Source: Candidatus Xenobia bacterium (GTDB lineage Bacteria > Vulcanimicrobiota > Xenobia > Xenobiales > QWHO01). Taken from it: 64,000 nucleotides of DNA. Below the pieces are notes generated by a model. That model was not told the origin of the DNA. It saw only the letters and a list, made by a program, of their open reading frames with translations, and did no database searches. A program made the translations under genes and the position numbers. This document shows, one piece after another, positions 10,439 through 61,291 of this stretch. Position 1 is the stretch's first letter. Each line of letters begins with the position of its first letter. Where the stretch lies: positions 1 through 64,000 of the forward strand of contig BTUM01000002.1 of assembly GCA_045863235.1 (NCBI GenBank), in the 5' to 3' direction.

Positions 10439-10471
10439 AATCTACCGCCGGGCACTGAAAGAGAGCTGAAC
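10439..10471 (-). promoter_or_regulatory. TTTCAGG direct-repeat promoter
   Basis: GTTCAGC-tctc-TTTCAGT-N9-TAGATT upstream of 10405. Confidence 0.65.
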
Positions 10472-10894
10472 TCAATCGGTGTGCAAGATGACCTGAAACT
10501 CCTGGCAACGGGGGCAGATCCCCATGACCACGCCGCAGTCAAAAAAGCCCCCGTCCTCGTACCGATCGCACTGGCCCAGGTGGAAAGCGTTGCCGCCGCA
10601 CTTGGAGCAGCGGGGATCCTCGCGCTGACGGGGGGCCGAGCCGTCGCTGCGCACCTCGAGGTGGCGCGTCTCGCGCTGGCACTCGACACAGCGGACGAAC
10701 ATGGCCCCGATGAAATCCATCTCGTCGCTGGTAGGCTCGTGCTCCAGGCGCGGGATCAAGACCGTCTCGCCGCACGGACACTCCACCAGGCAGAAGCTGA
10801 AGGTCACGTCGCTGGAGGCCCTCCCCTCCCCCAGTCGTTCCCCGGTGGCCTGGCTGAGCACTCTCCAGGCCTCGTTTCTCTCCATGCGTGCCAC
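10472..10894 (-). CDS. Cys-rich hypothetical protein (putative zinc ribbons)
   Basis: CPCG, CVEC, CSKCG, CPRC motifs. Confidence 0.6.
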   Translation of the reverse strand: MARMERNEAWRVLSQATGERLGEGRASSDVTFSFCLVECPCGETVLIPRLEHEPTSDEMDFIGAMFVRCVECQRETRHLEVRSDGSAPRQREDPRCSKCGGNAFHLGQCDRYEDGGFFDCGVVMGICPRCQEFQVILHTD

Positions 10895-10932
10895 TCCCAG
10901 GAAGGTTAGTCGGGAGGTGGAATTCCCAACCG

Positions 10933-11739
10933 ATGCTCGCTCCCCTGCCCGTCGACCGACGCCAGAACCTGAGCTACGAAGAGTTCACCGCCGAGTATGC
11001 GGTACCCAACCGACCGGTCATCCTGGAGAACCTGACCGCCGAGTGGCCCGCCCAGAAACTCTGGACGCCCGACTTCTTTCGCGTTCGCTACGGCCACCTG
11101 CGGGTCACCGTATCACGGGCCGCCCGCAAGACCGAGTTACCGGTCACCATGAGCCTGGATGAATATGTTCGCTATTTGCAGGCAACCACCGAGAAGCGGC
11201 CCTGGTATCTCACCAGCTGGGATTTCACCGCCGCGGCGCCCGAGCTGAGAAACGACTTCAGCCTGCCGCGCTATTTCGCCGAGGATTTCATCGCCGAGTT
11301 GCCGGAGGCGGTGCGCCCGCGGCTGCTCTGGCTCTTCATGGGGCCACCCGGCTCAGGCTTTCGCATGCACGTGGACGTGGGTCACACGGCCGCCTGGAAC
11401 GCCCAGCTGATCGGACGCAAAGAGTGGATCTTGTACGCACCCGATGAGGCGGAGAACGTTTATCAGGGCCGGGCCGACGCCTTCAGCCCCGACCTGGAGC
11501 GCTTCCCTCGCCTGAAGCAAGCGCAGGCACGCACGGCCACGCTCGGCCCCGGCGACGTGATCTTTACCCCCAGTTGCTGGTGGCACCAGACCAGAATCCT
11601 GGAGACCAGCCTCTCGCTGACCGGCAACTACGTCAACCACACCAACCTGGCTCTGGTCCTGGAGTATCTGAGGGGGCAACCGGATACCCTCGAGCTGGCC
11701 GAGCAACTCGAGCGCATCGCTCAGCTCCAGCCGAAGTAA
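10933..11739 (+). CDS. JmjC/cupin-8 Fe(II)/2-oxoglutarate oxygenase (JMJD6-like)
   Basis: NRPVIL, WLFMGPPGSGFRMHVD, GRKEWIL, PGDVIFTPSCWWHQ (HxD...H triad). Confidence 0.88.
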   Translation: MLAPLPVDRRQNLSYEEFTAEYAVPNRPVILENLTAEWPAQKLWTPDFFRVRYGHLRVTVSRAARKTELPVTMSLDEYVRYLQATTEKRPWYLTSWDFTAAAPELRNDFSLPRYFAEDFIAELPEAVRPRLLWLFMGPPGSGFRMHVDVGHTAAWNAQLIGRKEWILYAPDEAENVYQGRADAFSPDLERFPRLKQAQARTATLGPGDVIFTPSCWWHQTRILETSLSLTGNYVNHTNLALVLEYLRGQPDTLELAEQLERIAQLQPK

Positions 11740-12821
11740 TCGCGCATCTTCAGGTACACTTCGGGGCTCTGGATCAGCTCCCCGTGCTTGCTGGTCTTGT
11801 CTTGCAAGACCTCAACCGGCAAGCCTTCCAGAGCCAGACTACCGACCGGCACCATGCCATCCCCTTTGCCTGGCCAGCTGATCGTCGTGCCCACCGTCAT
11901 GCGCGAGGCGGCGCCCAGGTGCAGCACCGCTTCCACGCTATCCCGCTGCCGGGGCCAGCGACTGTTCAGGTCGGCCCGAGGCTCAGAGTTCGGGCGCAGC
12001 CACTCCAGGGCCCGCCGGTCCTCTTCGCGCACGTCCTTACCCACCAGCAGCCACTGGGTGTCCCAGCCCCGAGCCTTTCCGTTCAGCAGGCCCAGCGACA
12101 GACCGGCCAGGCCCGCACCTTGCTGGGGCGTGGCGATGAACAACAGCTTCCCCACGCCGTGGTCTTCGTTCTGGTCCACGAAGAGCCGGGTGGCCAGACC
12201 GCCCATGCTGAAGGCGGTGACGTCCACCACCTCCTGGCCGGTGAGCTTCTTGATGGCGGCCAGGTTCTGACTCAACTCGGGCTGGGCTTCGTCAGGCGCC
12301 ATGCGGTTGGAGGTGAGCACGCTCACGAAGACCTTCATGCCCGGATCGGGGTTGGCCAGCGGCTGTTGGCACTGCGGGTCGGAGAAGAACTGCCCTTGCT
12401 GCACGTAGCCCACTCGTCCACCATTGCCGCCATTCTCGGTCAGCTTCTGGCCAATCGGTCCGAACCGCTCGATGTGGGTGTGCCAGCCGTGCACGAACAC
12501 CAGCGGTCGCTGAATGCTGGCCGAAGGAAGCGGGCCCAGCTCACTGGGCGGAATGTTGGGCTTGCGATAGGTCGGGGTCTTCCCCACGGCGCAGACAACC
12601 TTGCCCACGCAGTGGGCGACCGGTCCGAACAAGGCCGCCCGGCAGGCACCCGAGGCTGCCGCCAGGGCCTGGGCTCCCAGGCCCTTCTTGCAGGGGGGAG
12701 CGGGCGACTGCGACGGCAGGGGGTCTACCCTGTCCGGAGCCGGCGTCTCAGGGGTAGAAGAAGACCGGACGGGCCGATCCCAGTGCACAGACAGAGGCAG
12801 CAAGGCTGCTCGAGCGATCAT
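11721..12821 (-). CDS. Alpha/beta hydrolase (lipase/PGAP1-like) with N-terminal low-complexity leader
   Basis: PLVFVHGW, AFSMGG nucleophile elbow, IATPQQG, GDGMVP, His in KHGEL. Confidence 0.82.
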   Translation of the reverse strand: MIARAALLPLSVHWDRPVRSSSTPETPAPDRVDPLPSQSPAPPCKKGLGAQALAAASGACRAALFGPVAHCVGKVVCAVGKTPTYRKPNIPPSELGPLPSASIQRPLVFVHGWHTHIERFGPIGQKLTENGGNGGRVGYVQQGQFFSDPQCQQPLANPDPGMKVFVSVLTSNRMAPDEAQPELSQNLAAIKKLTGQEVVDVTAFSMGGLATRLFVDQNEDHGVGKLLFIATPQQGAGLAGLSLGLLNGKARGWDTQWLLVGKDVREEDRRALEWLRPNSEPRADLNSRWPRQRDSVEAVLHLGAASRMTVGTTISWPGKGDGMVPVGSLALEGLPVEVLQDKTSKHGELIQSPEVYLKMRDYFGWS

Positions 12822-12827
12822 AAGGGC

Positions 12828-12860
12828 AGTTTATTCGGGTGGCCTGAAAGGAACTTGAAG
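12828..12860 (-). promoter_or_regulatory. TTTCAGG direct-repeat promoter, probably leaderless
   Basis: CTTCAAG-ttcc-TTTCAGG-N9-TAAACT-N6-ATG(12821). Confidence 0.7.
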
Positions 12861-12886
12861 CCTTGCTGGTCAATCAGCCCCGCCTG

Positions 12887-15800
12887 ATGGCGATCGCAAT
12901 CGTAGGCATGGGAGCGGTGCTTCCCGGAGCCAAAAGTCTCGAGGAATTCTGGCAGAACCTGGCAGCCGGCCGCTCGGCCGCGCGCGAGGTTCCAGCCTCG
13001 CGCTGGGCCTTCCAACCCGAGGTGGGAAAGGGTCCCGACCAGGTGGCCTCGCGCATTGCCTGCCTGCTCGACGAGCTGCCCGGCGGTCACCCCGACCCGG
13101 TCTGCCAGCTTGCCCTGGCGGCCGGGCGCCAGGCCTTCGCCCAGGCCCGCACCGAGGGACTGGATCGCTCCCGGGTCGGGGTTATTCTGGCCTCCATGGC
13201 CCTGCCCACCGAGCTCTCCTCGGCCCACAGCTTGAGTGTGCTCGAGCGGGGCCAGGGTCGGCCCGAGGACCGCGCCGCCGTCAGCCTGCCCGCGGCCGAG
13301 TTGGCACGCGATCTGGGACTGGGCGGCGGCAGCTTCACCCTGGATGCGGCCTGCGCCAGCAGCCTGTACGCCCTCAAGTTCGCCTGCGACGAGCTTGTGA
13401 GCGGGCGGCGCGACGCCATGCTGGCCGGCGGCCTGAATCGCTCCGACAGCCTCTACACCCAGATCGGCTTCACCGCCCTGCAGGCCCTGAGCTCGAGCGG
13501 CGTGTGCCGGCCCTTCGACCGGCGCGGGGACGGCCTGGTGGTGGGGGAAGGAGCCGCCGTCTTCCTGCTCAAGCGCCTGAAGGACGCGCGCCGCGACGGC
13601 GACCGGGTGCTGGGCATCATCCGCGGCATCGGCCTGTCGAACGATACGGGCGGCAGCCTGCTGGCGCCCGACGCGGAGGGCCAGCTACGAGCCATGCGGG
13701 CGGCTTACCGGCAGGCTGGCTGGAGCCCCGGCCAGGTCGACCTGGTGGAGTGCCATGGCACCGGCACCGCCGCGGGCGATCAGACTGAGCTGCTGAGCCT
13801 GCGCGAGATGTGGGGCGACGAGCCGCGAGGTTGCGCCATCGGCTCGGTCAAGTCGATGATCGGGCACCTCTTGACCGGCGCCAGCGCGGCTGGCCTGGTC
13901 AAGGTGCTGCTGGGAATGCAGCACGAGACGATCCCTCCCCACCTGAACTTCGAGCAGCCACTTCCTGCACTGGAAGGCTCTCCCTTCGTGGTGCCGACCC
14001 GAGCGGAGAGCTGGCCACGGAGGGCCCCGGACGTGCCTCGCCGGGCAGCCGTGAGCGGCTTCGGCTTTGGCGGCGTCAATGGCCACTTGCTGCTGGAAGA
14101 GGACCTGGGCCAGGAGGTGCCCGAGCCCCCCGGCAAGCCCTCCCACCCCATCGCCATCGTAGGCCTGGGTGCGCACATCGGCCCCCACACCCATCGTGAC
14201 GCCTGGCTGCGGGCCGCTCTCAAGGGCGAGTCGGCGGCCGGACGGGTGGGCGAGGTCGCCCTCCCGGTCGGCAAGTTCCGGGTGCCTCCCCACGATCTGC
14301 CCTCGCTTTTGCCCCAGCAGCTCCTGATGCTGAACGTGGCCGCTCAGGCGGTGGAGGACGCTGGCCTGGAGCTGAACGGCCCCCAGCCCTCCATGGGGAC
14401 CTACATCGGTGTGAGTCTCGATGCGGAGACCAACAACTACCACCATCGCTGGGTGCGCGGACCCCAGGTGCATCCCGCCCTGGACTCCACCCGCACCCTG
14501 GGAGCCCTGGCCAGCATCGTGGCCAGCCGCGTGGCCCGCGAGCTCTCGCTGGGCGGGCCCAGCTTCAGCCTGTCGGCCGAGGAGGTATCCGGTCTCAAAG
14601 CCCTCGAGCTGGCCGTGCGCGCCCTGCAGCAGGGCGAGCTGGACTGCGCCCTGGTGGGGGCGGTGGATCTTTATGCCGACCCGCGCTCGCTGCACGCTCA
14701 CAAGCAGCTCTTCCCCTCCCTGCCGGCCGGCGAGGGGGCTGTGGCCCTGGTCTTGAAGCGGCTCGGCGATTGTGCCCCGGACCAGAAGATCTACGCCCTG
14801 ATCGGAGGTGTGGGCGCGGCCAACACGCCCAGGCTGGCCCTGGAGCGCAGCGGAGCCAGCGGCTTCTCGCTTTTCGATGGCCCCGAGCTGCCTGCCGCCG
14901 ACCGTCTTTGCGCCGTCACCGAGCTGAGCGACCACCTGGGCGCGGTCACCGGCCTGGCCGCCCTGGCCCGGGCGGCCGCCTGTCTCTACCACCAGCTGCT
15001 GCCCGCCGGACCGGCCGGGGCCCGAGTCGAGGAGCCCCTGCACGTGACCCGCGAGCCCCTCTACTGGTTCCGCGATCGGATCCAGGGCCCACGCCGGGCC
15101 GCAGTGGCCTATCCGGCTCGCGACGGCAACGCGATGGCGGTCATGCTCGAAGGGCTCGAGCAGCCACCTCCGCGCCTCTACGATCTGCCCGCCGCCATCT
15201 TCTGCTTCGCTCCCGACCAGATTCCCGCGTTGCGGGCCCGGCTGGCCGAGGACTTCACCTCCCTGGCTCGCTCCTGGCAGGGCCAGCCCATCTTTGCCTG
15301 CGTGGCTTCCAGCCCGGCCGGCCTGAAGGACGCCCTGGACCTGGCCGAGCAGCACCTGGAGCGCCACCGGGAGGTCCCCTTACGGGGCCAGAGCGGCCTT
15401 TTCTACGCTCCGACGCCCCTGGGGCAGGGTGAGGTGGCCTTCGTCTATCCCGGCTCGGGTAGCCACTTCCTGGGGATGGGCCGCGAGCTGGCGCGCAGCT
15501 TCCCCGAGCTGGTCCACGCCCTGGACCAGGAGACCGAGGAGCTCTCCACCCACTTCATGACCCGCTACTACACCCCCTATCGGGGCGATTTTGGCCCCGA
15601 CTGGCGCGAGCTGGCGCGGCGTGACATCGAGGCAGATCCCCATCACATGATCTTTGGCCAGGTCTGTTTTGGCATTCTGGCCACCCGGGTCGCCCTGGCG
15701 CTGGGCCTCACAGCCCAGGCGGCGCTGGGCTACTCGCTGGGGGAGTCGTCCGCCCTCTTCTCGCTGGGCGCCTGGACCGAGCGAGACCTGATCTACCGGC

Positions 15801-19195: not shown

Positions 19196-19244
19196 TCCAG
19201 CCGGCCATATCCTGGTAACATTTGCTGCCTGGCAGAGACGGTCT

Positions 19245-19277
19245 TTTCTGAATTTGGTAAGAGCCCGGGGTTACTCT
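19245..19277 (+). promoter_or_regulatory. Degenerate direct-repeat promoter
   Basis: TTTCTGA-attt-GGTAAGA-N9-TACTCT; same spacing, weaker second repeat. Confidence 0.4.
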
Positions 19278-19312
19278 CCTGCAAAAGACACAATGACGGT
19301 GGAGAGTTTCCC

Positions 19313-20869
19313 ATGCTCGCGATGAACCTGACCCCGTCGCCCGCCCTGCGGCTGGCGATGTCTCGGCCCGTGGCCGCCCAGAACCCGGCCGAATGGCTGA
19401 AACCGGTGGACACCCCTCCGGCCACGGAAGGCAAGAAACTGGTGGCGCGCGAGAGCGAGGGCGACAAGACCATCATCTGGGAGCGCGACGACCAGGGCGT
19501 GGTGACAACCCCCGACTCCAACCTGGCGGCCGGCGGCACGCCGATGCAGAAGGTGGGCCGCTGGCTCTCCAACAAGCTGGTGCCCGAGAACTACAAGGTG
19601 GCCTGCAGCCCCGACTACCCGGCCACCCGGGCCTGGCAGCTGGTGCGTGACTATGCCGGCTCGATGGCCGGCACGGCTGCGGTCGGGTGCGTCATGGGCA
19701 GCGTGACCGGCGCCACCACCGCCCTGCTGGCCCTGGGCTGGGGGGCGGTCAACTTCGCTAACATGAACAACCTCAAGGACCGCGTCGGTCAGGTGACCAG
19801 TTTCCTGGCCACCCCGCTGGCCATTCGGGCCGAGCGCAACCCCCGTCCCTGGATGATGGCCGGCGATGTCTGCCAGCACGTCTGCACGGCCATGGACGCG
19901 GCCGTAGCCGTGGCTCCCCCCTTGCTCTACTTCCCGATCCTCACTGTCAGCACCACCCTGCGCTCGATTGCAGGAGCCGTTTCGGGCGCAGCCAGCGCCA
20001 ATATCGGACCGCGCCAGGCCATCAAGGGAAATCTGGGCGAGGTCAGCGTCAAGAACGCCAACCAGGGCAACGCCGCCACCATGGCCGGCGCGCTCACCAC
20101 CCCTCTCGTCGTGGGCGGCCTGACCAGCTACTTCGGGGCCACCGGCGCCCAGGTGACCGCCGCCCTGGCCGGGGACCTGACCGCCCTGGCCAGCGTAGGC
20201 CACGCGGTCGCCCTGGCCGGCCTGGTCACCGTGGGAATCGGAGCCGCCCTGGGCCTGTTTGCCAACTATATGATGCTCAAGAACCTGGATTACAACCCGG
20301 TCAACGAGCCCGCCCTGCGCGCCATCGTCAACCACATGGAAGAAAACCAGGGCCAGATCTGCAAGCCCGACCCCTCGGTGCTGCAAGCCATGGGCACCCT
20401 GGTCGGATGCGAGAAGCTGGTGGTGGGAGACCGCATCAAGCCCATCCTGGAGGATCCCGAGTTCGAGACCCTGCGCGAGCTCTACAAGGACCGCCCCTAT
20501 ATCCTGCGCTACACCGAAGCTCAGCCTTACATCGTGATGAAGACCGACGAGCGCTTTGCCCAGAGCCAGACCCCCACCGTGACCACCACCACCCTGCCTC
20601 ACAACACCGACTACCTCAATCGGATGGGCCAGGTCCAGGCGGCCATCCAGGCCATCCACGGCGAGCGCCTGGTCGCCTCGCCCGAGTACCAGGAGAAGCT
20701 CGCCTCGGGAGGGCACAGGGAGGCCGACCGCTGGCTGCTCGAGGAGAGCCTGAAGAAGACTCCCCGGAACGTCGAGCCCTTCTTGCTCAAGCTGCAAGAG
20801 GCCGGCTGGAGCGTAGACCTCCTGCGCCTGCGGGGCAAGGATCGACCCACGGTGTTCGAGGAAAAGTGA
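19313..20869 (+). CDS. RUS1/DUF647 (root UV-B sensitive) family membrane protein
   Basis: LVPENY...SPDY...WQ, LKDRVGQ, NPRPW...GD, IAGAVSGAASANI, GNLGEVSVKNANQ parallel the eukaryotic RUS motifs (recalled, not searched). Confidence 0.72.
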   Translation: MLAMNLTPSPALRLAMSRPVAAQNPAEWLKPVDTPPATEGKKLVARESEGDKTIIWERDDQGVVTTPDSNLAAGGTPMQKVGRWLSNKLVPENYKVACSPDYPATRAWQLVRDYAGSMAGTAAVGCVMGSVTGATTALLALGWGAVNFANMNNLKDRVGQVTSFLATPLAIRAERNPRPWMMAGDVCQHVCTAMDAAVAVAPPLLYFPILTVSTTLRSIAGAVSGAASANIGPRQAIKGNLGEVSVKNANQGNAATMAGALTTPLVVGGLTSYFGATGAQVTAALAGDLTALASVGHAVALAGLVTVGIGAALGLFANYMMLKNLDYNPVNEPALRAIVNHMEENQGQICKPDPSVLQAMGTLVGCEKLVVGDRIKPILEDPEFETLRELYKDRPYILRYTEAQPYIVMKTDERFAQSQTPTVTTTTLPHNTDYLNRMGQVQAAIQAIHGERLVASPEYQEKLASGGHREADRWLLEESLKKTPRNVEPFLLKLQEAGWSVDLLRLRGKDRPTVFEEK

Positions 20870-20927
20870 CGTTTCGGTAAACTGGCGGTAACCAAATCGA
20901 CCGCATTGACGAGGTATGTTTCAGGGG

Positions 20928-21173: not shown

Positions 21174-21189
21174 CCTACACATCGCGCTG

Positions 21190-22179: not shown

Positions 22180-22216
22180 GGTCTGCGCCTGGATGGGGCG
22201 AGGAGGTCCTCCACGC

Positions 22217-30067: not shown

Positions 30068-31204
30068 ATGGAGGTTCCTGACCAGAAGAACCTGTTCGTG
30101 CTCGGCGCCCTGGAGCGCAACGTTTCCATCTACCTGCAGCAGGTGCGGGCCCTCAACCTGGCCTGGGATCTGGGGCGGCGCGGCCCGGTGGCCGTCATCG
30201 GAGGGGGGTTCGCCGGCCTCACGGCGGCCGCCGGGCTCACCGCACTGGGCACCCGGGCGGTGGTCTTCGAGCGCCAGGACCAGCTGCTCAAGCTCCAGCG
30301 GGGCAATCGGGTGCGCTGGATCCACCCTCACATCCACGAGTGGCCCCGCCCCGGCGCGGAGGATCCACGCGCCGGGCTGCCCTTGATGGACTGGCAGGCC
30401 GGTTACGCCGGCGACGTGGCCGAGAGCCTGCTCGCCCAGGTCGACTTCGAGGTGCGCCTCAACTCCCGGGTGACCCTGGAGACCGGCTGGAAAGTCAACG
30501 CCGAGAGCTTCGAAGCGGTCATCCTGGCGGTGGGGCTGGGGGTGGAGAAGACCTTTGGCAACCTGCCCTTGCTCTCTTACTGGCTCGACCGCGACATCGA
30601 GGCAGGTGGGCGTGTCTTCATTTCCGGGTGCGGCGAAGGTGGGCTGATCGACGCACTCTACCTCAAGCTGACAGACTTCCGCCACGACCGGGTCGTCAGC
30701 GAGTGCCTGAGCGGCCTGGACGAGCTGAAAGCCCGCCTGCTCGAGCTCGAGGATGGCCTGGAGAACGCCGATCCTGTCGAGGCAGGGCAGAAGCTGACCA
30801 GGGCTTACGCAACCCTGGCCGTGCCCGAGAAGGTGGACGCGTGTCTCGCCGCCCGCCTGCGCAAAGATACCGACGTGGTTCTGAACAGCCCGAGCAGCCA
30901 CTTTCTTACCAACAAGGCAGACATTCTCAACCGCTTTCTGATCAGCCGGCTGCACCGGATGGGAGCGGTGGCCCACGTCCCGGGCAAGCTCCAGAGCATC
31001 GAACCAGAGGGAGAGCGTTGGCGAGTTCAGCTCGATACCGGGCTGGACGAGCCCTACGATCGCGTGCTCGTCCGCCACGGCACCGTGCCGGCCCTCAAGT
31101 CGGAGTTCGCTCGCTGGTGGGAGCCCTATCTGGCCGTGCGTAAGGAACGCCCCTTCGAGGTTCCGGTGCCACGCTTTCAGTTTTCTTTGGGCCGCCACAG
31201 CTAA
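30068..31204 (+). CDS. FAD/NAD(P)-dependent oxidoreductase
   Basis: VAVIGGGFAGLTAA, RWIHPHIHEWP, ISGCGEGGLID, VLVRHG. Confidence 0.8.
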   Translation: MEVPDQKNLFVLGALERNVSIYLQQVRALNLAWDLGRRGPVAVIGGGFAGLTAAAGLTALGTRAVVFERQDQLLKLQRGNRVRWIHPHIHEWPRPGAEDPRAGLPLMDWQAGYAGDVAESLLAQVDFEVRLNSRVTLETGWKVNAESFEAVILAVGLGVEKTFGNLPLLSYWLDRDIEAGGRVFISGCGEGGLIDALYLKLTDFRHDRVVSECLSGLDELKARLLELEDGLENADPVEAGQKLTRAYATLAVPEKVDACLAARLRKDTDVVLNSPSSHFLTNKADILNRFLISRLHRMGAVAHVPGKLQSIEPEGERWRVQLDTGLDEPYDRVLVRHGTVPALKSEFARWWEPYLAVRKERPFEVPVPRFQFSLGRHS

Positions 31205-31207
31205 CCT
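31175..31207 (+). promoter_or_regulatory. TTTCAGG direct-repeat promoter, probably leaderless
   Basis: TTTCAGT-tttc-TTTGGGC-N9-TAACCT-N6-GTG(31214). Confidence 0.62.
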
Positions 31208-31213: not shown

Positions 31214-32086
31214 GTGAGGATCCCTACCCTGACCGGTCCGGTTTCATTCCAGGAGATGCGCTCGACCCTGGATGCGCGTATGACCGAGTGCGCCGCGCAA
31301 ATCGAAAAAGACCTCCCCGCCTGGGATCAGCTCACCCGCGAGAAGCTCGATGCGGTCAGCGAGCTGGCCTGCTCGCTCTCCCCCACCAACTCAGTCGAGG
31401 TCAAGCAGAGCATGCGCACCGCTCTGTGGGAGCTTCGTCAGGCCCTGGAGGCGGGCGCGGCCGAGTCGCTGGGCGCTCACCCGGGCAGCCGTCCCGAGGT
31501 GCGCAAGGCGCTCGAGAAAGTGCGTACCATCGCCCTGGACAACTCCTTCGAGGGGGCCGCTCGTTTCCCCAGGGAAGTTGTCGGCGTGCGCTGCGGCATC
31601 GACGCCATCCCCAATTTTCGTGAGGCGTCCCCGGGCATTTACCGGGGCGGCCAGCCCACCCAGGAGGGCGTGGACTGGCTGATCGCCCGCGGAGTCAGGA
31701 CGGTGGTGGACCTGCGTGGCTCTGATCAGCACAGTCCCTTCTGCCAGTGGGATCCGCCCAGCTGGAAGGGTGTGCAGCACGTCAATATCCAGGTGGAGGA
31801 CTACCAGACCCCCAGCCATGAGGAGTTGGCCCGGTTCATCACTCTGGCCGACCAGGCCTCGCCCGACAACCCGATGTTCTTGCACTGCAAGGCCGGCATC
31901 GGCCGCACCGGCACCATGATCGCCTGCTGGCGCATCACCAGGGGTTGGACCGCCGAGGAGGCAGTCCAGGCCGAGCGGCTGCACTCCTACGACGCCAGCT
32001 TCCGCCAGGAAGAGTTCGTGCGCAATTTCGAGCAACTCTGGAAAAGTGGCCAGTTTGCAGGAAAAATGGCCGCTGTTAACGACTAG
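31214..32086 (+). CDS. Cys-based dual-specificity/tyrosine phosphatase with helical N-terminal domain
   Basis: PNFREASPGIYRGGQP, VVDLR, HCKAGIGRTG (CX5R). Confidence 0.9.
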   Translation: MRIPTLTGPVSFQEMRSTLDARMTECAAQIEKDLPAWDQLTREKLDAVSELACSLSPTNSVEVKQSMRTALWELRQALEAGAAESLGAHPGSRPEVRKALEKVRTIALDNSFEGAARFPREVVGVRCGIDAIPNFREASPGIYRGGQPTQEGVDWLIARGVRTVVDLRGSDQHSPFCQWDPPSWKGVQHVNIQVEDYQTPSHEELARFITLADQASPDNPMFLHCKAGIGRTGTMIACWRITRGWTAEEAVQAERLHSYDASFRQEEFVRNFEQLWKSGQFAGKMAAVND

Positions 32087-32122: not shown

Positions 32123-32584
32123 GTGATACAGTTCGAATCTCCCGCACAAAAGGCGACCTTCGAGAAGATCGTCCCCTGGATGAAAGACCTCTTCGGCTCC
32201 TTTGCCGGCCAGCGCGAGGACGCGCCTGCCTTCAGCGTCTCGGTCGGCTCAGCCATGGCCCTCACTATGGTCTACCCCTGGCGCGATGAGGAGGCGGTCA
32301 TCTCCACCCGGGCCTGGGTGGTCACCGGCGCCGAGCTGACCCCTGAGTTGATGCACTATCTGCTCCGCGAGAACGACCGCATGAGCTTTGGAGCCTTCGG
32401 CATCGATCCCGACGGGGACATCTTCTTCGAGCACACCATCCTGGGCTCGACCTGCGACCAGCCCGAGCTGAAGAGCTCGGTGCTCTCGGTCGTGCTGGTG
32501 GCCGACGAGTATGACGACGAGATCGTCTCGCGCTGGGGCGGCCAGCGGGCCATCGACCGGGTGGCCAAGACGGCTCCGGCCTAG
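32123..32584 (+). CDS. YbjN / type III chaperone (CesT)-like protein
   Basis: Small acidic protein; LLRENDRMSFGAFGIDPDGDIFFEHTI, ADEYDDEIVSRWGG. Confidence 0.75.
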   Translation: MIQFESPAQKATFEKIVPWMKDLFGSFAGQREDAPAFSVSVGSAMALTMVYPWRDEEAVISTRAWVVTGAELTPELMHYLLRENDRMSFGAFGIDPDGDIFFEHTILGSTCDQPELKSSVLSVVLVADEYDDEIVSRWGGQRAIDRVAKTAPA

Positions 32585-39568: not shown

Positions 39569-41317
39569 TCAGGCTTTCTCGAAGTCGATAAAGCCCTTCT
39601 CGACGTTGGTGCCGGTCAGGCGCACCGTCATCTGTTGGCCATAGCGTCCACTGCCGTCGAGCTTTCCTTCGATCGGCATTTCCAGCAGGCGCACCCAGGT
39701 GCCCTTGTCGTTGGCGCCCGAGACGATGGCGTCGAAGGTCTCGCCGATGCGGTTCTGCAGCAACATCGCCGCAGCCGACTTCTGAATCTGGCGCTCGACC
39801 TTCTGGGCGTTCCCTTCTTGCTCGGTGCATCGGGTCGTCAACTCGCTCAGCTCAGCTTTGGTATAGCCCCAGTCCTTCTCGGTGGGGTTGGTGATACCCG
39901 CCGCCACACAGGCCTGAGCGGCCTTCAAGAGACGCTGGGTAATGACGTCGGGATAACGGCGATTAGGAGCCGTCGAGTGCGAGTAATCCTTGACGGCCAG
40001 TCCGAAGTGACCCACGGGCTCCTCGCCCGGGAACTGCACCACATACTCGCCCCGGCCGAGCAGCTTGACCACGTTCAAAGACAGATCGGGGAAGCGCAGA
40101 GGATCGTTTGCCCTCTCGCCCTCGAGGAACTGCTCGAGAGCGGCCGAATCGGGCTTGTCGGGCAACTCGTATCCCTTTTCGGCAGCGATATCGACGATCT
40201 TGTCCCAGTTCTTGGGCTCGCGCACGATGCGCTGGATGGTGGGGAAGCCGGCCTGGGTGAGGAACTTGGAGGCGCAGCCGTTGGAGGCTACCATCAGGTT
40301 CTCGATCAGCTCGGTGGCCAGGTTCTTCTCCGTCTTGTTGAGGTCCTTAACGGCCCCATCCTCCATCTTGGCCTTGGCCTCCTGCGACTCGAGCTGCAGT
40401 GAGCCGTTGCGGCGGCGCACTTCCTTGAGGGCCTGGGCCACCCGGCTCTGCGACTGGAGAGCAGCTGACACCTCGTCGCGCCCGTCCAGGGCTTTGGGGC
40501 GCTCGCCGCTGCCCTCGAGCCACTTGCCGATGCTGTCGTAGTTCAGAGCCACCTTGGAATTCACCATCGCCGGGTAGATGTCGAATTTTGTGACCTCACC
40601 CTCGGGGCTGATAATCATCTCGGTCACCATGGCCTGGCGGTCCACGCCCGGATTCATCGAGGTCAGGTTCTCGGAGAAGTGAGGGTCGATCATCGGGTAG
40701 ATTTTGTCGGCCGTGTAGACGGTGGTCGTATTCTTCTGGGCCTGCTTGTCGGGAGGGGAATTCTTGGGCATGAGCGCGTCCACGTCGGCGATGGCCACGT
40801 AGACCCTGGTGAACCCGTTGGGCAGGTCCTCGGAGGCCGAGAGCTGGTCGAGGTCCTTGGAGGTGACCACCTCACCGTAGCCGTTGTCCACCGAGCACCA
40901 GTTGAGGTGGCGCAGGTCCTTGATCTCGGGATTGAACGCGGGCTGTTGGATGGCCTTGATGAAAGCTGCCGCCTCACTGGAGTAGGTAGGGGTCAGGCCC
41001 TTCTCCGTCATGGCTTTGTCGGCCAGGACCTTCAGGTCGTACGTCTTGCCGCTGGCCGCCATGACCCCGATAGCGGCCTGGGTGCCCCCCACCCCCGCCG
41101 CTCCGATCTCGCCGTAACGACTGGACTCGCTCTGGGCCCGCTCGCGACCGCGATTGCTGCGCTGTTGCTGTTGAGGCCCGCGGGGCCCCCGCTGCTCTTG
41201 CGTGTTGTTCCCCGGACGATACCCGTCTTGAGGCCCCTGGTTCTGTCGATTCTTGCGATTCTTGCGCCCCGCCTCGACGGGGGCGGTGAAGGGGATCGAG
41301 GCCATGTTCACTTGCAT
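39569..41317 (-). CDS. RNB-domain exoribonuclease (RNase II/R family) with Q/R-rich N-terminal extension
   Basis: SVDN...SKDLDQ, VAIADV, IENLMVASN, HFGL...YSHSTAPNRRYPD; alternative TTG start at 41341. Confidence 0.9.
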   Translation of the reverse strand: MQVNMASIPFTAPVEAGRKNRKNRQNQGPQDGYRPGNNTQEQRGPRGPQQQQRSNRGRERAQSESSRYGEIGAAGVGGTQAAIGVMAASGKTYDLKVLADKAMTEKGLTPTYSSEAAAFIKAIQQPAFNPEIKDLRHLNWCSVDNGYGEVVTSKDLDQLSASEDLPNGFTRVYVAIADVDALMPKNSPPDKQAQKNTTTVYTADKIYPMIDPHFSENLTSMNPGVDRQAMVTEMIISPEGEVTKFDIYPAMVNSKVALNYDSIGKWLEGSGERPKALDGRDEVSAALQSQSRVAQALKEVRRRNGSLQLESQEAKAKMEDGAVKDLNKTEKNLATELIENLMVASNGCASKFLTQAGFPTIQRIVREPKNWDKIVDIAAEKGYELPDKPDSAALEQFLEGERANDPLRFPDLSLNVVKLLGRGEYVVQFPGEEPVGHFGLAVKDYSHSTAPNRRYPDVITQRLLKAAQACVAAGITNPTEKDWGYTKAELSELTTRCTEQEGNAQKVERQIQKSAAAMLLQNRIGETFDAIVSGANDKGTWVRLLEMPIEGKLDGSGRYGQQMTVRLTGTNVEKGFIDFEKA

Positions 41318-41351: not shown

Positions 41352-41384
41352 AGTGTAAGGACGGACCCTCAAAGCCTCCTGAAA
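41352..41384 (-). promoter_or_regulatory. TTTCAGG direct-repeat promoter
   Basis: TTTCAGG-aggc-TTTGAGG-N9-TACACT. Confidence 0.7.
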
Positions 41385-47786: not shown

Positions 47787-47898
47787 TGCGGCACATTTCG
47801 ACGGATGCGGCCGGTTTCATTTTCCGACTCCTGCCGTGGAAACCTCATTGAACGGCTCTAAGCGAAATGATTGCATCGATTCGAATCCCACACCTGTA

Positions 47899-48843
47899 TC
47901 AGGGAACGGTAGCGTAGACCTCATCCTCGTCGTCTGGCTTGCTGTTGGTGAAGATGTCCACCAGTTGGATGGTCTGGGCCACTCCCCCGATGGCCAGGCC
48001 AAGCAGGCTGCCGTCCGAGAAGACATAGGACTTGCCGAATTCCGACAGCAGGCCTGCCGGCAGGGCGCCCAGGCAGCCGGCCAGAGCCGGCGACAGAGGT
48101 TTCTTCACGATTCCCGCCCGGCGGGCTCCGCTCTCCATGGCCCCACCCAGGTCGTGGCTGACGTTGCGGATCAACTGGCCAAAGCGCGGGCCCACCACCG
48201 GCCCCACCGCGCCGCCCAGGGCGCTGGAGGCGACCATGAGGGCGGGAGGGACCGGGCTGGCGCCCAGCGCACCGAAAACGACCGCCAGGCCCGCGCCCAG
48301 GCCGGCGCCCAGAGCGGCCCGGGCGGCCGGGTGGAGGTCGGCTCCGTAGCGGGATGCCAGGGCGCTGGCCACGCCCCCGGTTGCCTTGGAGGCCCCTGGC
48401 AGAAAGAGGCCCGAGGCCACTGCGCCCATGTCACTCGCATCGCGCACTGAGGCGGTAGCCGCGCCGCCCAGCGTGGCAAAGCAGCCCAGCAAGCCTCCGG
48501 CCACGGTGCGCGAGACCAGTTCGGGCTGGCTGGTCAGATAGGCTACTCCAGCCCCGAGAGCCGCTCCCACCGCGATTCCCGCGGCCATGCCGGCCACCGC
48601 GTTGCCGGTCCGGCGCTCGGTCCAGATGCCTACCGTGCTGGCCAGGCTGGCGCTCAGGGCCCCCGACAGGCCGCCCATGGCCAGACCCTCGACAGCGCCG
48701 CCGATGGCTGCCTGGACATAGGAGGCTTCGGGCAGGTCGCCATGGGTGTGGGCGGCAGGACGCGACTTCTGGTCGAGCCACTGCCAGGCTCCGGTCGGAG
48801 GCCCTAACGGACGGGAAGGCAACTGCACGCTATCCATCCTCAT
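47899..48843 (-). CDS. Gly/Ala-rich (glycine-zipper-like) membrane protein
   Basis: Repeated GxxxG hydrophobic helices, polar N-terminal leader, acidic tail. Confidence 0.7.
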   Translation of the reverse strand: MRMDSVQLPSRPLGPPTGAWQWLDQKSRPAAHTHGDLPEASYVQAAIGGAVEGLAMGGLSGALSASLASTVGIWTERRTGNAVAGMAAGIAVGAALGAGVAYLTSQPELVSRTVAGGLLGCFATLGGAATASVRDASDMGAVASGLFLPGASKATGGVASALASRYGADLHPAARAALGAGLGAGLAVVFGALGASPVPPALMVASSALGGAVGPVVGPRFGQLIRNVSHDLGGAMESGARRAGIVKKPLSPALAGCLGALPAGLLSEFGKSYVFSDGSLLGLAIGGVAQTIQLVDIFTNSKPDDEDEVYATVP

Positions 48844-48857
48844 CGCATCGAGGATAG

Positions 48858-48875
48858 CCTGAAAGAAGCCTGAAA
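48858..48875 (-). promoter_or_regulatory. Perfect TTTCAGG-N4-TTTCAGG direct repeat
   Basis: TTTCAGG-cttc-TTTCAGG 14 bp upstream of ATG 48843; no good -10 at the usual N9 position (TATCCT lies 1 nt downstream). Confidence 0.6.
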
Positions 48876-48913
48876 GTGGTTAACAGCACTTTAACCGCTC
48901 TCCGAACAAACGG

Positions 48914-48942
48914 TTGACACTCTGCCCGCCTCGGCTTATGAT
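48914..48942 (+). promoter_or_regulatory. Sigma70 promoter of rplY-pth
   Basis: TTGACA-N17-TATGAT; GGAGG RBS at 48962-48966. Confidence 0.85.
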
Positions 48943-48976
48943 AACGGCTGATTTTCAGCACGGAGGATGTCCGATC

Positions 48977-49597: not shown

Positions 49598-49599
49598 TC

Positions 49600-52025: not shown

Positions 52026-52074
52026 CCAGCACCACAGTTGACGAACCTGTGCCGGCGGGCCAGGAGAGGATGGG

Positions 52075-54966
52075 TTAGTTCGCCCCCGGGAAATTGGTCA
52101 CGCCCAGCGGCCGCTTGCCCTGGTCGACCATCTTGACGAACGCTTCCACGACCTGCGGGTCGAACTGCGTGCCGGCGCCCTTCTTGAGCTGCTCCAGAGC
52201 AGCCTCAGGAGGGAGAGCCTTGGCCGCGTCGGGGCGCTCGGCGATGTTCCAGCGCTTCTCGGTCATGGCGTCGTAGGCGTCGGCCACCGCCAGGATGCGA
52301 GCCCCGATAGGGATCTGCTCGCCAGCCAGGCCGGCCGGGTAGCCCTTGCCGTCAAAGCGCTCGTGATGGTGAGTGACCACCTGCTGGGCTCCCGGACTGG
52401 TCTGGAAAGCCTCGAAGTAAGGCTTGAGGCGATCGGGCGAAACGTGCTGCTTCATCGCAGCGAACTCCTCGTCGGTGTACTTGCCCACTTTGTCAAGGAT
52501 CTCTTTGGGGACGTCGATCTTGCCGATGTCATACACTTGACCTGCCTCGTGCAGGGTTGCAGCGTCCTGAGCGTTCAGCCCCATCACCTCGGCCAGTGTG
52601 TTGGCAATGGCATTGGCTCGCGCCTGGTGCTTCATCGTGTAGCCGCCCTCGAGCTGGCTGAACTCGGTGGAGATCTGGGCCAGGTTGCGCCCGTTCACCG
52701 AGATCTCCGGCTGGGCCTGAGCGGCTGCCGCGTTCGCATCCATGATGGCCACCGCGTCGACGAGCTGAAGCATGTGGCTCGCTGCCTGATCGCCACCCTT
52801 GGCCGCCTCCAGCTTCTGCTGGATCTCAGCCATATCGCCGGCCTGAGCCTTGCTGACCAGAGCCCGGGCCGAAGCCAGTTGCTCGGGGGTAGCCCCGGCC
52901 ACCAGCGCCTCGGCCGCCTGGCGTGCCTGGGCCTGAACCTCCAGGATGCGGGCGTCGGCCTTCGCCAGGAAGGCGACCGCGGCCTGATCGCCACCGTCGG
53001 CGGCGGCCTTGATCTGGCTGACGACACCGGCGGCATTCGGGTCACCGTTCACCAGCGCGTTGACCAGGGCATCGACGGTGACGCCCTGATAGCTGTCAGC
53101 GGGTGGGGCTTGCGGCCTGGGAGCAGCGGCCGGCTCGGCCGGAGGCGCCGCCTGGGGACGGGGAGCCGCGGCGGGGGCCGGCTGACTCAGGGCGGCCTGC
53201 AGCTTGCCGGCCGTCTCCTGGTCGCCGTAGATGACGAACTTGATGTCCTTCACGTTCTGAGACCTGGCCGAGAAGTCGCGCACGGCCCGCGCCATGTCGG
53301 CGATCTTCTCGGCTTCGGTGCCGCCCACGTTCTTCATGACGCCCAGGCGCATAGCCGGGATGGACAAAGACTGCATCCCCGCTTTGTCGGCCGCTTCCAG
53401 GCCGGCAGTCAACACGTCGTAGAGCGGCTTGTTCAGGTCATCGACCACGAAGACCACATTCTTGAAGGCGCCCTGGTGGGCTTGCTGGGTGGTGGCGATC
53501 TTGACCTGGCCGGTCTGCCCGCCGATTAGCGACTGGGCCTGCTGGTGGAACTGGCCACCGCCTGCGCGACCGATGGCGCCGTCCACGCCACCGGCCCACA
53601 TGCCTTCGGAGTTGACCCCGGTGATGAGGCCGTCAGCGGGAACGCGGGTGATGTCGCCCATCTGCACGCTGACCGTGGGAGCCGTGCGAGCGGCGGCCGG
53701 GCTGGTGGCCACCTCGGCGGCCGGGGCCATGTTCCGCGGGGGAGCGTTGGCCGGCTGCTGGGCCGGGCTGGCCCCCTGCATCTGGCTCATGATCTGCTGA
53801 GCGCCCGCCATGTCTCCCCGATTGAGAGCGTCTTGCAGCGAGGCCAGCAGTTGCTCCTGGGTGGCCGGCGCGGGACCGGGCACCGGGCCCGAAGGCGGGG
53901 CGGGGCCAGCCGGGGGTGGCGTAGGCGGCGGCGAGCCGGCCGCGGCCGCGTTCACCGGCGGGGTGGGAGGCGCGAAACCGGCGGCCTGAGCGGGCTGGGG
54001 CTGGATGAAGTGGGCCAGGCCCGGGAAGATGGCTCCGGCTCCGGCGGCCGAGAAGGGCATCAGGTGCATCTCTTGCTGCTGGCGGCTGCGCCACCACTTC
54101 TGCACGGGGGCGTTCTTCCAGTCGAAAAAGCCGTTGTAGCCGTTCTTGTTGCTGGCTGTGGCGTGCCCGAGCAGTGAACCGCCAGTGACGCTGTAGCCTT
54201 GCTGGGAGTTGCCCTTTACGGTGAGAGGGTCTTCCTGACGCGGAGCCGGGCCGCCGATGCCGAAGGCCCGACCCAGGCTGGACATGATCCCGCCCTCCTG
54301 GGCCTGGTTGGCCTGCGGGGTCTCGCTGACTTGCGAGCCCCATACCTGGCCTTTTGGATTCTCGAAAATCTGCGTGTACTGCTTGCCCTGGGCCGTGGTC
54401 ACCTCGTTGAATACGCTGATCTTGGTGCCATCGGCGGCGATCATCTGGGCGTGCTCGCGAACCAGGCCTTCCGGTCGCTGCTGGAAGGGTGAGCTGACCC
54501 CGTATTCAGCCTTCTCGGGATCGAGGATGAGCAGGGTGGGGTTATTGGCCTCCATCTGGACATACAGCTTGCCGTCGCTGCCCATCTGGGCGTTCAGGCC
54601 GATGGGCTGGTCGGGGTTGGATGGGTTGAACATCTTGGCCTGCACGCTGCCGTCGAGACTGCGCTGCACGGCAACCTGGACCGGCAGGAAGGGACCGGCC
54701 GGGAGCACCGCCTGGAAGGCCACTCCGCCCTGATCGCGCAACAGTTGCAGCCCGCTGGGATAGGCTTTGACGGTCTGCTGAGCCTGCTGGGCCTGTTGGG
54801 CGCCGCCCATCTGGGTGGGTGGCTGGGGAACCGAGCCAGCCAGCCCATCGGAACCGTAGTCGTGACCCGCCGGAGGCTGGCCCTGAACCTGGCCGCGATT
54901 GGCCCAGCCCGCGATGTACGAGGCTCCATTTGCTCCGGGCTGATTGACAGGGTTGCTTCCGTTCAT
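52075..54966 (-). CDS. Multidomain protein: unknown N-terminus, P/Q/A linkers, macro domain, HD-GYP domain
   Basis: GAGGAGG RBS before ATG 54966; macro GDITRVPADGLITGVN...GGVDGAI; HD-GYP YDIGK, HHHERFDGKGYP, RILAVADAYDAMT. Confidence 0.82.
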   Translation of the reverse strand: MNGSNPVNQPGANGASYIAGWANRGQVQGQPPAGHDYGSDGLAGSVPQPPTQMGGAQQAQQAQQTVKAYPSGLQLLRDQGGVAFQAVLPAGPFLPVQVAVQRSLDGSVQAKMFNPSNPDQPIGLNAQMGSDGKLYVQMEANNPTLLILDPEKAEYGVSSPFQQRPEGLVREHAQMIAADGTKISVFNEVTTAQGKQYTQIFENPKGQVWGSQVSETPQANQAQEGGIMSSLGRAFGIGGPAPRQEDPLTVKGNSQQGYSVTGGSLLGHATASNKNGYNGFFDWKNAPVQKWWRSRQQQEMHLMPFSAAGAGAIFPGLAHFIQPQPAQAAGFAPPTPPVNAAAAGSPPPTPPPAGPAPPSGPVPGPAPATQEQLLASLQDALNRGDMAGAQQIMSQMQGASPAQQPANAPPRNMAPAAEVATSPAAARTAPTVSVQMGDITRVPADGLITGVNSEGMWAGGVDGAIGRAGGGQFHQQAQSLIGGQTGQVKIATTQQAHQGAFKNVVFVVDDLNKPLYDVLTAGLEAADKAGMQSLSIPAMRLGVMKNVGGTEAEKIADMARAVRDFSARSQNVKDIKFVIYGDQETAGKLQAALSQPAPAAAPRPQAAPPAEPAAAPRPQAPPADSYQGVTVDALVNALVNGDPNAAGVVSQIKAAADGGDQAAVAFLAKADARILEVQAQARQAAEALVAGATPEQLASARALVSKAQAGDMAEIQQKLEAAKGGDQAASHMLQLVDAVAIMDANAAAAQAQPEISVNGRNLAQISTEFSQLEGGYTMKHQARANAIANTLAEVMGLNAQDAATLHEAGQVYDIGKIDVPKEILDKVGKYTDEEFAAMKQHVSPDRLKPYFEAFQTSPGAQQVVTHHHERFDGKGYPAGLAGEQIPIGARILAVADAYDAMTEKRWNIAERPDAAKALPPEAALEQLKKGAGTQFDPQVVEAFVKMVDQGKRPLGVTNFPGAN

Positions 54967-55000
54967 TGACCAGACCCTCCTCGGTTGGATATCCACTTCT

Positions 55001-55033
55001 TGTTTCCCACGCGGAGCGGAAAATTCACTGAAA
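55001..55033 (-). promoter_or_regulatory. Degenerate direct-repeat promoter
   Basis: TTTCAGT-gaat-TTTCCGC-N9-GAAACA (weak -10). Confidence 0.4.
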
Positions 55034-55035
55034 GG

Positions 55036-56958: not shown

Positions 56959-57068
56959 CGTCTTTTATCAGGCCTGACCGGTAGAGATTTATTCCATGCC
57001 GATCAATGCCGATCCTGCTCCAACAGCGATCCAGGAGGCAGGCAGAGAGCGTCGAAGCTGCCGCGCCC

Positions 57069-60365
<3,297 letters not shown>

Positions 60366-60369
60366 AGGG

Positions 60370-60747
60370 TCAAGCCAGGGCGGCCAGCGACCAGCCCAGG
60401 TTATCGAAGCGGAAGGTGGCCGTGCCGATGCGGTGACCGGCCCGCATGAGAGGGCAGAAGACCTGGTCTCCGACCGACTGCTCCTCCCCCAGCCGAAGCA
60501 GGCCGTGGGGGTTGGTGATGAGGTTCTCGAGCTTGCGCAGGAGGGGCTCTTCGCCGTCCTGACGGACCTGACTTTTGAAGCGGTTGCGCAGGGGGGTGTC
60601 GAGCACTGCCCAGAGGGCGTCGGGTTGTCCCTTCAGCACGGCCCGGGTGAACGTGTCGAAGGTGGAGCGAGGGGTGCGCCGGTCAATCTTGACCGTGATC
60701 TTTTGTTCGCTCGCGGGGCACTCGCTCAAGGTCTGCGTAAGGACCAT
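60370..60747 (-). CDS. Hypothetical protein
   Basis: GGAGG RBS before ATG; 125 aa. Confidence 0.65.
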   Translation of the reverse strand: MVLTQTLSECPASEQKITVKIDRRTPRSTFDTFTRAVLKGQPDALWAVLDTPLRNRFKSQVRQDGEEPLLRKLENLITNPHGLLRLGEEQSVGDQVFCPLMRAGHRIGTATFRFDNLGWSLAALA

Positions 60748-60865
60748 CCGAACCTCCGATCCGACTCCGGTGCTGCCGGGACCGAGGTCATCGTAATTTG
60801 CCGGATGGTTACAGATGTAAACAGAGTGTTAACAAATGGAAACGGGGATCGATTTTGTTACCGGC

Positions 60866-61213
60866 TTATGAACGGCCGGTCAGAGCGCGCAGATCCTCGC
60901 GATCCAGGGGAGCGCCCTTGAGCACGGACAGGAACTTGTGGATGCGCCGGCGGATGTGCTCGGCGACCCAGCCGATGGCCGCACCCCAGGCGATCCCGAT
61001 GACGAGCAGATAGGGAGGCTCGGAGGGGCAGAAGAGCATGGTCAAAATGGCGCTGGAAGCAAAGCCCAGAGCCAATCCCAACTGTACCAGGGCGGGAACG
61101 GTCAAACGTCGGACCTTTTTGCGGACCACGGGCCGGGCCAGGCCAGGCCGCTGGCGCTGGGCCTCCTCGAAGGCCAGCTTGTTGGCGTAATAAGTATAGA
61201 CATTGACCGTCAT
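60866..61213 (-). CDS. Small two-TM hypothetical protein
   Basis: Two hydrophobic helices; preceded by the repeat promoter. Confidence 0.65.
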   Translation of the reverse strand: MTVNVYTYYANKLAFEEAQRQRPGLARPVVRKKVRRLTVPALVQLGLALGFASSAILTMLFCPSEPPYLLVIGIAWGAAIGWVAEHIRRRIHKFLSVLKGAPLDREDLRALTGRS

Positions 61214-61219
61214 AACCCG

Positions 61220-61252
61220 AGTTTAGGAAAGCGACCTGAAAGCTCGCTGAAA
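61220..61252 (-). promoter_or_regulatory. TTTCAGG direct-repeat promoter, probably leaderless
   Basis: TTTCAGC-gagc-TTTCAGG-N9-TAAACT-N6-ATG(61213). Confidence 0.72.
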
Positions 61253-61258
61253 CAGAAT

Positions 61259-61291
61259 GTTCAGTTTTCTTTGAGCAGGGGATGGCAGTTT
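61259..61291 (+). promoter_or_regulatory. Direct-repeat promoter (divergent partner)
   Basis: GTTCAGT-tttc-TTTGAGC-N9-CAGTTT-N7-ATG(61299). Confidence 0.52.

Follow-up and report, generated by a model that had tools for sequence, protein, structure and literature searches.

The window analysed here comprises positions 1 to 64,000 of contig BTUM01000002.1 (G000:C2:1-64000 in our numbering) from the genome of a Candidatus Xenobia bacterium (G000; 8.36 Mb, 66% GC, 97.6% complete). It carries repeated copies of a promoter element, in the following called the box, that consists of two TTTCAG-type direct repeats with an 11-bp period and a -10 hexamer at a fixed distance downstream. A sequence-only reading of the window had described five main copies, and their coordinates and strands proved to be exact (matrix scores 23-30); the four weaker copies named there, at 19245, 48858, 55001 and 61259, all lie above the matrix threshold with scores of 16.5-22.9. 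Three start codons placed 6 nt past the -10 hexamer (12821, 31214 with GTG, and 61213) and the housekeeping promoter of rplY were likewise correct. The boxes and the genes that follow them are:

9638..10405, minus strand: target gene, 255 aa, no Pfam family, export-like N-terminus
10439..10471, minus strand: box promoter, score 30.2, leader of about 33 nt to the gene of the 255-aa protein
11721..12821, minus strand: target gene, 366 aa, weak DUF7379 match (E 5e-5)
12828..12860, minus strand: box promoter, score 30.2, ATG 6 nt past the -10
19245..19277, plus strand: weaker box promoter with a degenerate second repeat, score 18.2
19313..20869, plus strand: target gene, 515-518 aa, UVB_sens_prot (RUS) domain
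31175..31207, plus strand: box promoter, score 27.2, GTG 6 nt past the -10
31214..32086, plus strand: target gene, 290-aa dual-specificity/tyrosine phosphatase (PF22741) with a long N-terminal extension
32123..32584, plus strand: gene of a protein resembling type III secretion chaperones (TY-Chap1), directly 3' of the phosphatase gene
39569..41317, minus strand: target gene, RNase II/R-type exonuclease (RNB+S1) with a low-complexity N-terminus
41352..41384, minus strand: box promoter, score 23.2
47899..48837, minus strand: target gene, 312 aa, no Pfam family
48843..48875, minus strand: box with two strong repeats and a poor -10, score 16.5
48914..48942, plus strand: for contrast, the housekeeping promoter of rplY, TTGACA-N17-TATGAT
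52075..54966, minus strand: target gene, 963-aa Macro + HD_5 protein
55001..55033, minus strand: box with a poor -10, score 18.2
60866..61213, minus strand: target gene, 115 aa, no Pfam family
61220..61252, minus strand: box promoter, back-to-back with the following box, score 28.8, ATG 6 nt past the -10
61259..61291, plus strand: box promoter with a non-canonical -10, score 22.9, ATG 7 nt past the -10
61299..62111, plus strand: target gene, 270 aa, no Pfam family

That the box is a genuine promoter motif serving a very large regulon is almost certain. Its consensus, (Y)TTTCAG-N5-TTTCAG-N10-TAnnnT, occurs at 378 non-redundant sites of the genome. Pairs of the word TTTCAG peak at a gap of 5 (97 pairs, compared with 4-19 at the remaining gaps), and the distance from TTTCAG to TAnnnT peaks at 10 (138, compared with 3-12), with another 58 at gap 21 that are due to the upstream repeat; a reversed control word gave no spacing peak in the same genome-wide count. 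At up to two mismatches the (5,10) spacing yields 180 sites, 162 of them intergenic, and each of 41 alternative spacings at most 12; neither flexible spacing nor a third upstream repeat was seen in the genome-wide spacing scan. Strict sites number 143 in intergenic DNA and 0 in each of ten dinucleotide shuffles. A matrix trained on the genome returned 380 matches at a score of at least 16, of which 353 are intergenic, 21 sense and 6 antisense, as compared with 9 matches of the reversed matrix; intergenic DNA makes up 12% of the genome. The spacing, shuffle and reversed-control counts rule out a chance or compositional artefact.

The boxes also point toward the downstream gene, with a same-strand start within 110 nt at 357 of the 378, and at 248 of them the start codon lies 5-10 nt past the -10 (ATG peaks at 6, 7 and 9, a GTG peak at 6). 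Gene starts were taken from our own hexamer gene caller, and the control sets derived from it are therefore approximate. When 396 leaderless anchors were scanned without bias, TTTCA at -28 was the top positional word (58), TTGAC at -35 reaching 20. Two points of the sequence-only reading needed adjustment. It had described a heptamer TTTCAGG with N4 and N9 spacers; the rigid 11-bp-period repeat holds, but no base is fixed at the seventh position (G 0.37, C 0.31-0.40), so that the core is TTTCAG preceded by a pyrimidine, with spacers of N5 and N10. It had also extrapolated a very large regulon from 5-9 sites in 64 kb; the regulon is indeed very large, but boxes are about three times as frequent in the window as in the genome on average (about 2.9 per 64 kb).

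Ten back-to-back divergent box pairs were observed, among them the one at 61220-61291 of the window, and the two boxes are at most 6 nt apart in seven of them, an arrangement that suggests shared activator occupancy. Two identical 71-aa genes at G000:C133:656 and 2618 each carry a tandem double box, one box of which is among the top-scoring of the genome (36-37). Directly behind the divergent box at 12828-12860 starts the gene of a 2,110-aa polyketide synthase resembling polyunsaturated fatty acid synthases (KS and four FabA-like domains; 12863-19195, plus strand). An Atlas search with the 255-aa target (9638..10405) gave nothing usable, and no Rfam match for a structured RNA was found in the window. 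Assembled RNA contigs cover parts of several targets and were not used as evidence for start sites: the coverage of the stretch by one RNA run is as even as that expected of DNA, and a transcription start cannot be read from the contig ends near 54999-55012.

Beyond this genome, the box is common to the class Xenobia (Vulcanimicrobiota, also Eremiobacterota). Boxes were counted at up to one mismatch in 151 genomes against a reversed control that is not composition-matched, so that small excesses are weak. G122 was one of the 151 and underlies none of the conclusions. Genomes of group f1 hold 136-167 boxes (control 0-1), those of f2 21-162 (control 0-4) and those of f4 27-31 (control 0). The genomes of g3, g6 and g7 show no motif excess (0-3 boxes, control 0-2). 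Outside the class, 15-27 boxes were counted in f12 (control 3-6, once 1), 15 and 5 in f10, 13 in f16, and 0-4 in the 81 genomes of f14.

The architecture of the box indicates how it may be recognised. As described in PMC10936776, the afs box of the Streptomyces coelicolor afsS promoter, which is read by the SARP AfsR, has its centre at -29.5, its two repeats spanning -40..-30 and -29..-19 and TTCAGC occupying -38..-33; the contacts of AfsR are confined to the first 8 bp of either repeat, T-38 and T-27 are required, and sigma region 4 rests on the activator and not on DNA. If the -10 hexamer is set at -12..-7, our matrix agrees with the afs box position by position (T-38 0.80, T-37 0.89, C-36 0.80, A-35 0.88, G-34 0.82, T-27 0.96), and each repeat is conserved over its first 8 bp and weakly so over its final 3 bp. 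The pho box, as contained in a primer for the E. coli phoA promoter in PMC8601176, has the geometry heptamer-N4-heptamer-N10-TATAGT. Given the match to the afs box and to the geometry of the pho box, a pair of OmpR-type winged helices in place of the -35 element is well supported as the class of mechanism, in which such a pair would bind the two repeats. The proposal of a master activator with winged-helix-type repeat sites replacing the -35 is supported by counts, spacing, orientation and class-wide conservation.

A SARP-type activator had been suggested, and this could be narrowed down to one candidate. We consider it probable that the box is read by an 821-aa REC-HD_5-TPR-SARP protein encoded at G000 C19:72632-75097 (C19 SARP), one of 20 SARP-type (ODB+BTAD) proteins in the genome besides 13 ordinary OmpR regulators. 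SARP loci were retrieved from five diverse genomes (29, 23, 20, 9 and 2 loci; for G013, the best 30 of 40 BTAD matches). In all five the C19 SARP retains a winged-helix identity of 0.70-0.90 and a recognition-helix identity of 0.82-1.00, and each of the other 19 SARPs has a winged-helix identity of at most 0.52 in at least one of them. Only two SARPs are present in G030, one of which is the C19 orthologue. Orthologues were found in 25 of the 27 genomes of f1, f2, f4, g8 and g9 and in none of the 14 of g3, g6 and g7. Two out-of-sample genomes fit this pattern: G097 has 31 boxes (control 0) together with a full C19 orthologue, and G052 has 25 (control 1) together with a related SARP with a similar helix. 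Among the 77 listed of 424 relatives there are at least 18 full-length matches, 8 of whose titles name Vulcanimicrobiota, Xenobia or UBP9, 4 being unspecific and 6 bearing other deposit labels. The profile of the protein gives weak matches to AfsR and EmbR (E 5e-4 to 6e-3), its predicted model (pLDDT 74) has AfsR and EmbR as the top six fold matches (TM score 0.43-0.48), and the backbone-contacting W, P, S, R and K of AfsR are kept at equal spacing. Note that C-terminal SARP regulators are expanded throughout the lineage (20-29 per genome in G000, G007, G009 and G013), mostly as REC-...-SARP proteins with rapidly varying recognition helices.

The targets, which had been taken for unrelated genes, instead have an export-like N-terminal signal in common. 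An M-[IQLNR]-[IV] start is favoured, Pro and Ser are abundant in the N-termini, and both early acidic residues and hydrophobic signals are scarce there. Residue 3 is I, L or V in 210 of 357 targets, in 200 of 885 controls led by a Shine-Dalgarno sequence and in 74 of 255 box-free leaderless controls; the first 12 residues are free of D and E in 232/357 targets versus 369/885 controls, and a hydrophobic signal or transmembrane start is found in 17/357 versus 214/885. According to PMC3338616, type III substrates of the P. syringae type have an aliphatic residue 3 or 4, no early acidic residues and a high Ser content; all three rules, used without the proline option of that source, hold for 64/357 targets as compared with 37/885 and 17/255 controls. 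A cross-validated classifier separates the N-termini with an area under the curve of 0.84 (internal segment 0.55), and in relatives it scored above 0.5 for 14 of 31 motif genes versus 6 of 76 controls (p 7e-8), 10 box matches without a clear start having been excluded before the 31 were counted. The bias is kept in leadered targets (52/108). In 68 targets that have a non-target paralogue, the N-terminus is at least 20 residues longer in 27 and at least 20 residues shorter in 7, the control starts again being those of our gene caller.

The 357 targets group into 264 families. Of 140 targets scanned against Pfam, which were drawn from target-dense regions and not at random, 94 have no family at E 1e-5; among non-target proteins of the window 7 of 32 have none at E 1e-3. 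The 46 targets with a family include 11 PQQ-type propellers, peptidases (M48, C1, C11, C26, C92, S51), three InhA-like MAM proteins, four acyltransferases, two glycosyltransferases, a nuclease, a lytic transglycosylase, a phosphodiesterase and a phosphatase, as well as a transporter, a helicase and metabolic enzymes. The largest target family consists of 17 box-controlled PQQ-type beta-propeller paralogues without signal peptides (e.g. C16:90731-91882 and C31:60865-61869); the second-largest has 11 members and includes large InhA-like MAM proteins.

A candidate exporter is encoded on contig C27, where a flagellar-type export core (FlhA/B, FliP/Q/R/O/N/M/I/H/G/F/E/J, FlgB/C, FliK) scores best as flagellar. 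With the true flagellar cluster of the relative G013 as tblastn queries, no match to FliC, FlgK/L, FliD, FliS, FliW, FlgM, FlgA/H/I or MotA/B was found in G000. The G000 assembly also lacks RpoD in spite of its 97.6% completeness, so that single gene absences are provisional. Among 41 genomes, full-length FlhA was found in 36 and flagellin in 8. A minority of Xenobia (G013 at C1:555-595 kb, G004, G011, G015, G019, G023, G031 and G040) has retained a further, complete flagellar system in addition to the exporter without flagellin. Stand-alone proteins with only the C-terminal, cytoplasmic FlhA domain (FHIPEP) occur in G000 (C80:28174-29157, C3:27006-27977, C1:377670-378254) and relatives. G000 has 7 FHIPEP matches and its relatives as many as 19; such proteins might act as adaptors in the sorting of a large set of cargo. 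We further observed a second family of 11-bp repeats, GTTAACA-N4-GTTAACA, located 21-22 or 32-33 nt before -10 hexamers in G000 (in the window at 60815-60833, minus strand). These repeats occur at the export-apparatus operon (C27, upstream of flgB), at pilin-like genes and at many genes with export-like N-termini; a self-seeded matrix gave 507 intergenic matches versus 92 for the reversed control, which is a rough count, and of five genomes tested the excess is clear just in G030 and G040.

Several observations weigh against the C19 SARP as the reader. Its A638 and H642 replace the base-reading T88 and R92 of AfsR (aligned by counting residues from W74); a histidine at the latter position is also found in KdpE and B. 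subtilis PhoP, which read T-rich repeats. The assemblies of G001 (90% complete, 136 boxes) and G003 (64%) contain no C19 orthologue, G091 of the same class has a diverged orthologue without motif excess (3 vs 1), and in G045 and G059, which have a small excess of boxes (15 vs 2 and 13 vs 0), no SARP-domain match was present among the matches listed. The excess in g8 and g9 is small (2-7 boxes, control 0), kin genomes are not independent, and the shared absence of protein and motif from g3, g6 and g7 is weak because these genomes are reduced and have lost many genes. No box was found upstream of the SARP gene at 25 loci (best score 6.2).

The strongest rival reader is an ultra-conserved OmpR/PhoB-family response regulator (C4:205130-205825), which would then be a CtrA- or PhoB-like master regulator of the box. 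This is improbable in our estimation. Its 95-99% identity across f1, f2 and g8 is what a reader of hundreds of sites should display (for G007, G009 and G013 30 of 59 OmpR matches were compared), and the pho box geometry in PMC8601176 equals that of our box; the same helix, however, is present in G012 (g3) and G014 (g6), both without the box, the pho box has G where our box has T at -38 and -27, and the GTTAACA-type repeats at class-I/II positions offer this regulator a natural alternative site. Those repeats show no clear excess in g3/g6, however (motif and control counts 8 vs 3, 12 vs 20 and 13 vs 12). No phosphate-uptake (pst/phoA-type) protein was seen among 149 of the 357 targets scanned. 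The C4 gene adjoins a PAS histidine kinase, and its product is 73-84% identical in families beyond f1, f2 and g8; it is likely a master regulator, possibly of the GTTAAC motif. That the box is instead defined by a dedicated group-2 RpoD-like sigma factor (C30:52185-53195), alone or with an activator, has a still smaller chance. This factor has an altered region 4.2, box promoters favour C at -8 (0.71 versus 0.33 at housekeeping-like promoters, p 2e-13), and its occurrence in f1, f2, f4, g8 and g9, not in g3, g6 and g7, nearly equals that of the C19 SARP, which lessens the weight of the latter's distribution. A single region 4 leaves two equal repeats 11 bp apart unexplained, the region-4 helix differs between families at constant motif, the factor was not found in the motif-rich G031 (97% complete), and it has no His after region 4 of the kind that AfsR contacts in the primary sigma (PMC10936776). 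No box autoregulation of its gene was seen. Given the C-8 preference and the similar distribution, it may be the partner sigma. An insertion in region 3, about 30 residues long, is common to this factor and the RpoD of the class. Equally doubtful is a box shared by several of the 20 SARP paralogues or by an unrecognised DNA-binding protein, our screen having covered the SARP and OmpR families: motif-rich genomes do hold 20-29 SARPs, and the base-reading Thr/Arg pair of AfsR is present in the paralogues C115 and C114, but the helices of both vary freely between genomes. The FHA-SARP C115, favoured by these AfsR-like base readers, was dropped for its patchy distribution, with close homologues in just 5 of 41 genomes.

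Concerning the function of the regulon, it probably comprises mainly type III cargo. The N-terminal rules on which this reading draws are loose, the pattern is also present in about 86 of 1,140 non-target controls, and a search for hidden boxes at non-target genes with the pattern found no significant excess (p 0.07-1.0). Among the targets are some that are clearly no cargo, such as membrane transporters (MFS and others), a helicase and a PilZ protein, and one of five chaperone-like genes, that next to the window phosphatase, adjoins a target. Most apparatus genes are outside box control, the flgB operon having the GTTAAC repeat; across C27:25-84.7 kb just one pilin-like copy has a box with a score of at least 16, and in 4/4 triplet loci of f1 one of three pilin-like export-locus genes is boxed and the other two have housekeeping-like promoters. 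The same promoter class and reader might serve a general growth-phase or attack-state programme, the N-termini being due to recent gene birth or to constraints on translation start. Transporters, a helicase, metabolic enzymes and signalling proteins among the targets, the many lineage-specific targets and the partial compliance with the three rules speak for such a programme. We nevertheless regard it as unlikely: the N-terminal bias is not seen in box-free leaderless genes and persists in leadered targets, signal peptides are depleted although many targets are hydrolases, and target N-termini are longer than those of their paralogues more often than shorter.

Box, C19 SARP and type III cargo regulon can be combined into a joint model, to which we assign a probability of about 0.5; its parts share evidence and are not independent. 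According to this model, one conserved SARP binds the box as a side-by-side pair at about 360 genes and replaces recognition of the -35. By analogy with the AfsR structure, the two protomers would occupy one repeat each (-40..-30 and -29..-19), and sigma region 4 would dock on the activator. The -10 would be opened as usual, and about two thirds of the mRNAs would begin at or near the start codon. The domain content of the protein suggests that phosphorylation of the receiver lifts an inhibition by the TPR spacer. A very large number of proteins would thereby be produced jointly for likely export by the flagellin-less and motor-less flagellar-type type III apparatus, and this cargo (proteases, nucleases, phosphatases, enzymes active on lipids or the cell wall, beta-propellers and many unknowns) presumably serves the attack on or digestion of other cells, as the ecology of the lineage suggests. 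Predation has been proposed for the related Ca. Eudoremicrobiaceae, in which secretion and degradative genes co-vary across expression states; the parts of that source considered here mention no such motif or regulon (PMC9259500). Nor was either found in literature searches on secretion and promoters of Xenobia, Eremiobacterota, Vulcanimicrobiota, UBP9 and Eudoremicrobi or on SARP effector regulons, the coverage of which excludes most subscription papers. More tentatively, and with the odds somewhat against it, we propose that Xenobia independently turned a flagellar basal body into an attack exporter, with some 300 or more cargo genes under one phosphorylation-controlled SARP and a GTTAAC regulator for the machine.

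If correct, this would be among the largest type III substrate repertoires known, would present a SARP as genome-wide master regulator outside Actinobacteria, and would add a second regulatory tier in which a separate GTTAAC-repeat regulator controls the machine itself. SARP-type activation would extend beyond antibiotic clusters to a regulon of genome scale, and a type III machine used only for secretion would seem to have arisen from the flagellum a separate time. For this widespread class of uncultured bacteria, to which the biosynthetically rich and proposedly predatory Ca. Eudoremicrobiaceae belong (PMC9259500), the box offers an easily testable point of entry. It supplies a list of candidate secreted proteins that runs to several hundred in each genome, two thirds of our sample being without a known family, names one candidate master activator, and provides hundreds of natural SARP-promoter variants for the study of leaderless initiation.

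The system resembles an AfsR-type promoter combined with a type III effector regulon, yet it lacks single features of membership of each. With AfsR and the afs box it has in common a pair of 11-bp direct repeats covering -40..-30 and -29..-19, the same core at -38..-34, a retained -10 without a usable -35, and a candidate reader with the ODB+BTAD fold. Unlike AfsR, it is found outside Actinobacteria and has targets that number in the hundreds and are dispersed, where AfsR has a few, a candidate whose SARP module is C-terminal behind REC-HD-TPR, and targets that resemble secreted cargo and not antibiotic biosynthesis. The pho box shares the geometry heptamer-N4-heptamer-N10-(-10) and an OmpR-type winged helix, but is of the CTGTCAT type with G at -38 and -27, where the Xenobia box has T (0.80 and 0.96). 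HilA of Salmonella SPI-1 is a winged-helix and TPR activator that uses 11-bp-period repeats to drive type III genes; its box sits further upstream, and it controls few operons. The hrp box of HrpL and the PIP box of HrpX regulate type III effectors of plant pathogens, with tens of targets. These regulons agree with the Xenobia regulon in placing one promoter motif on dispersed genes with similar N-termini; the latter differs by its SARP-type box, its flagellar-type apparatus without flagellin or motor, its approximately 350 targets, and the control of most apparatus genes by another motif.

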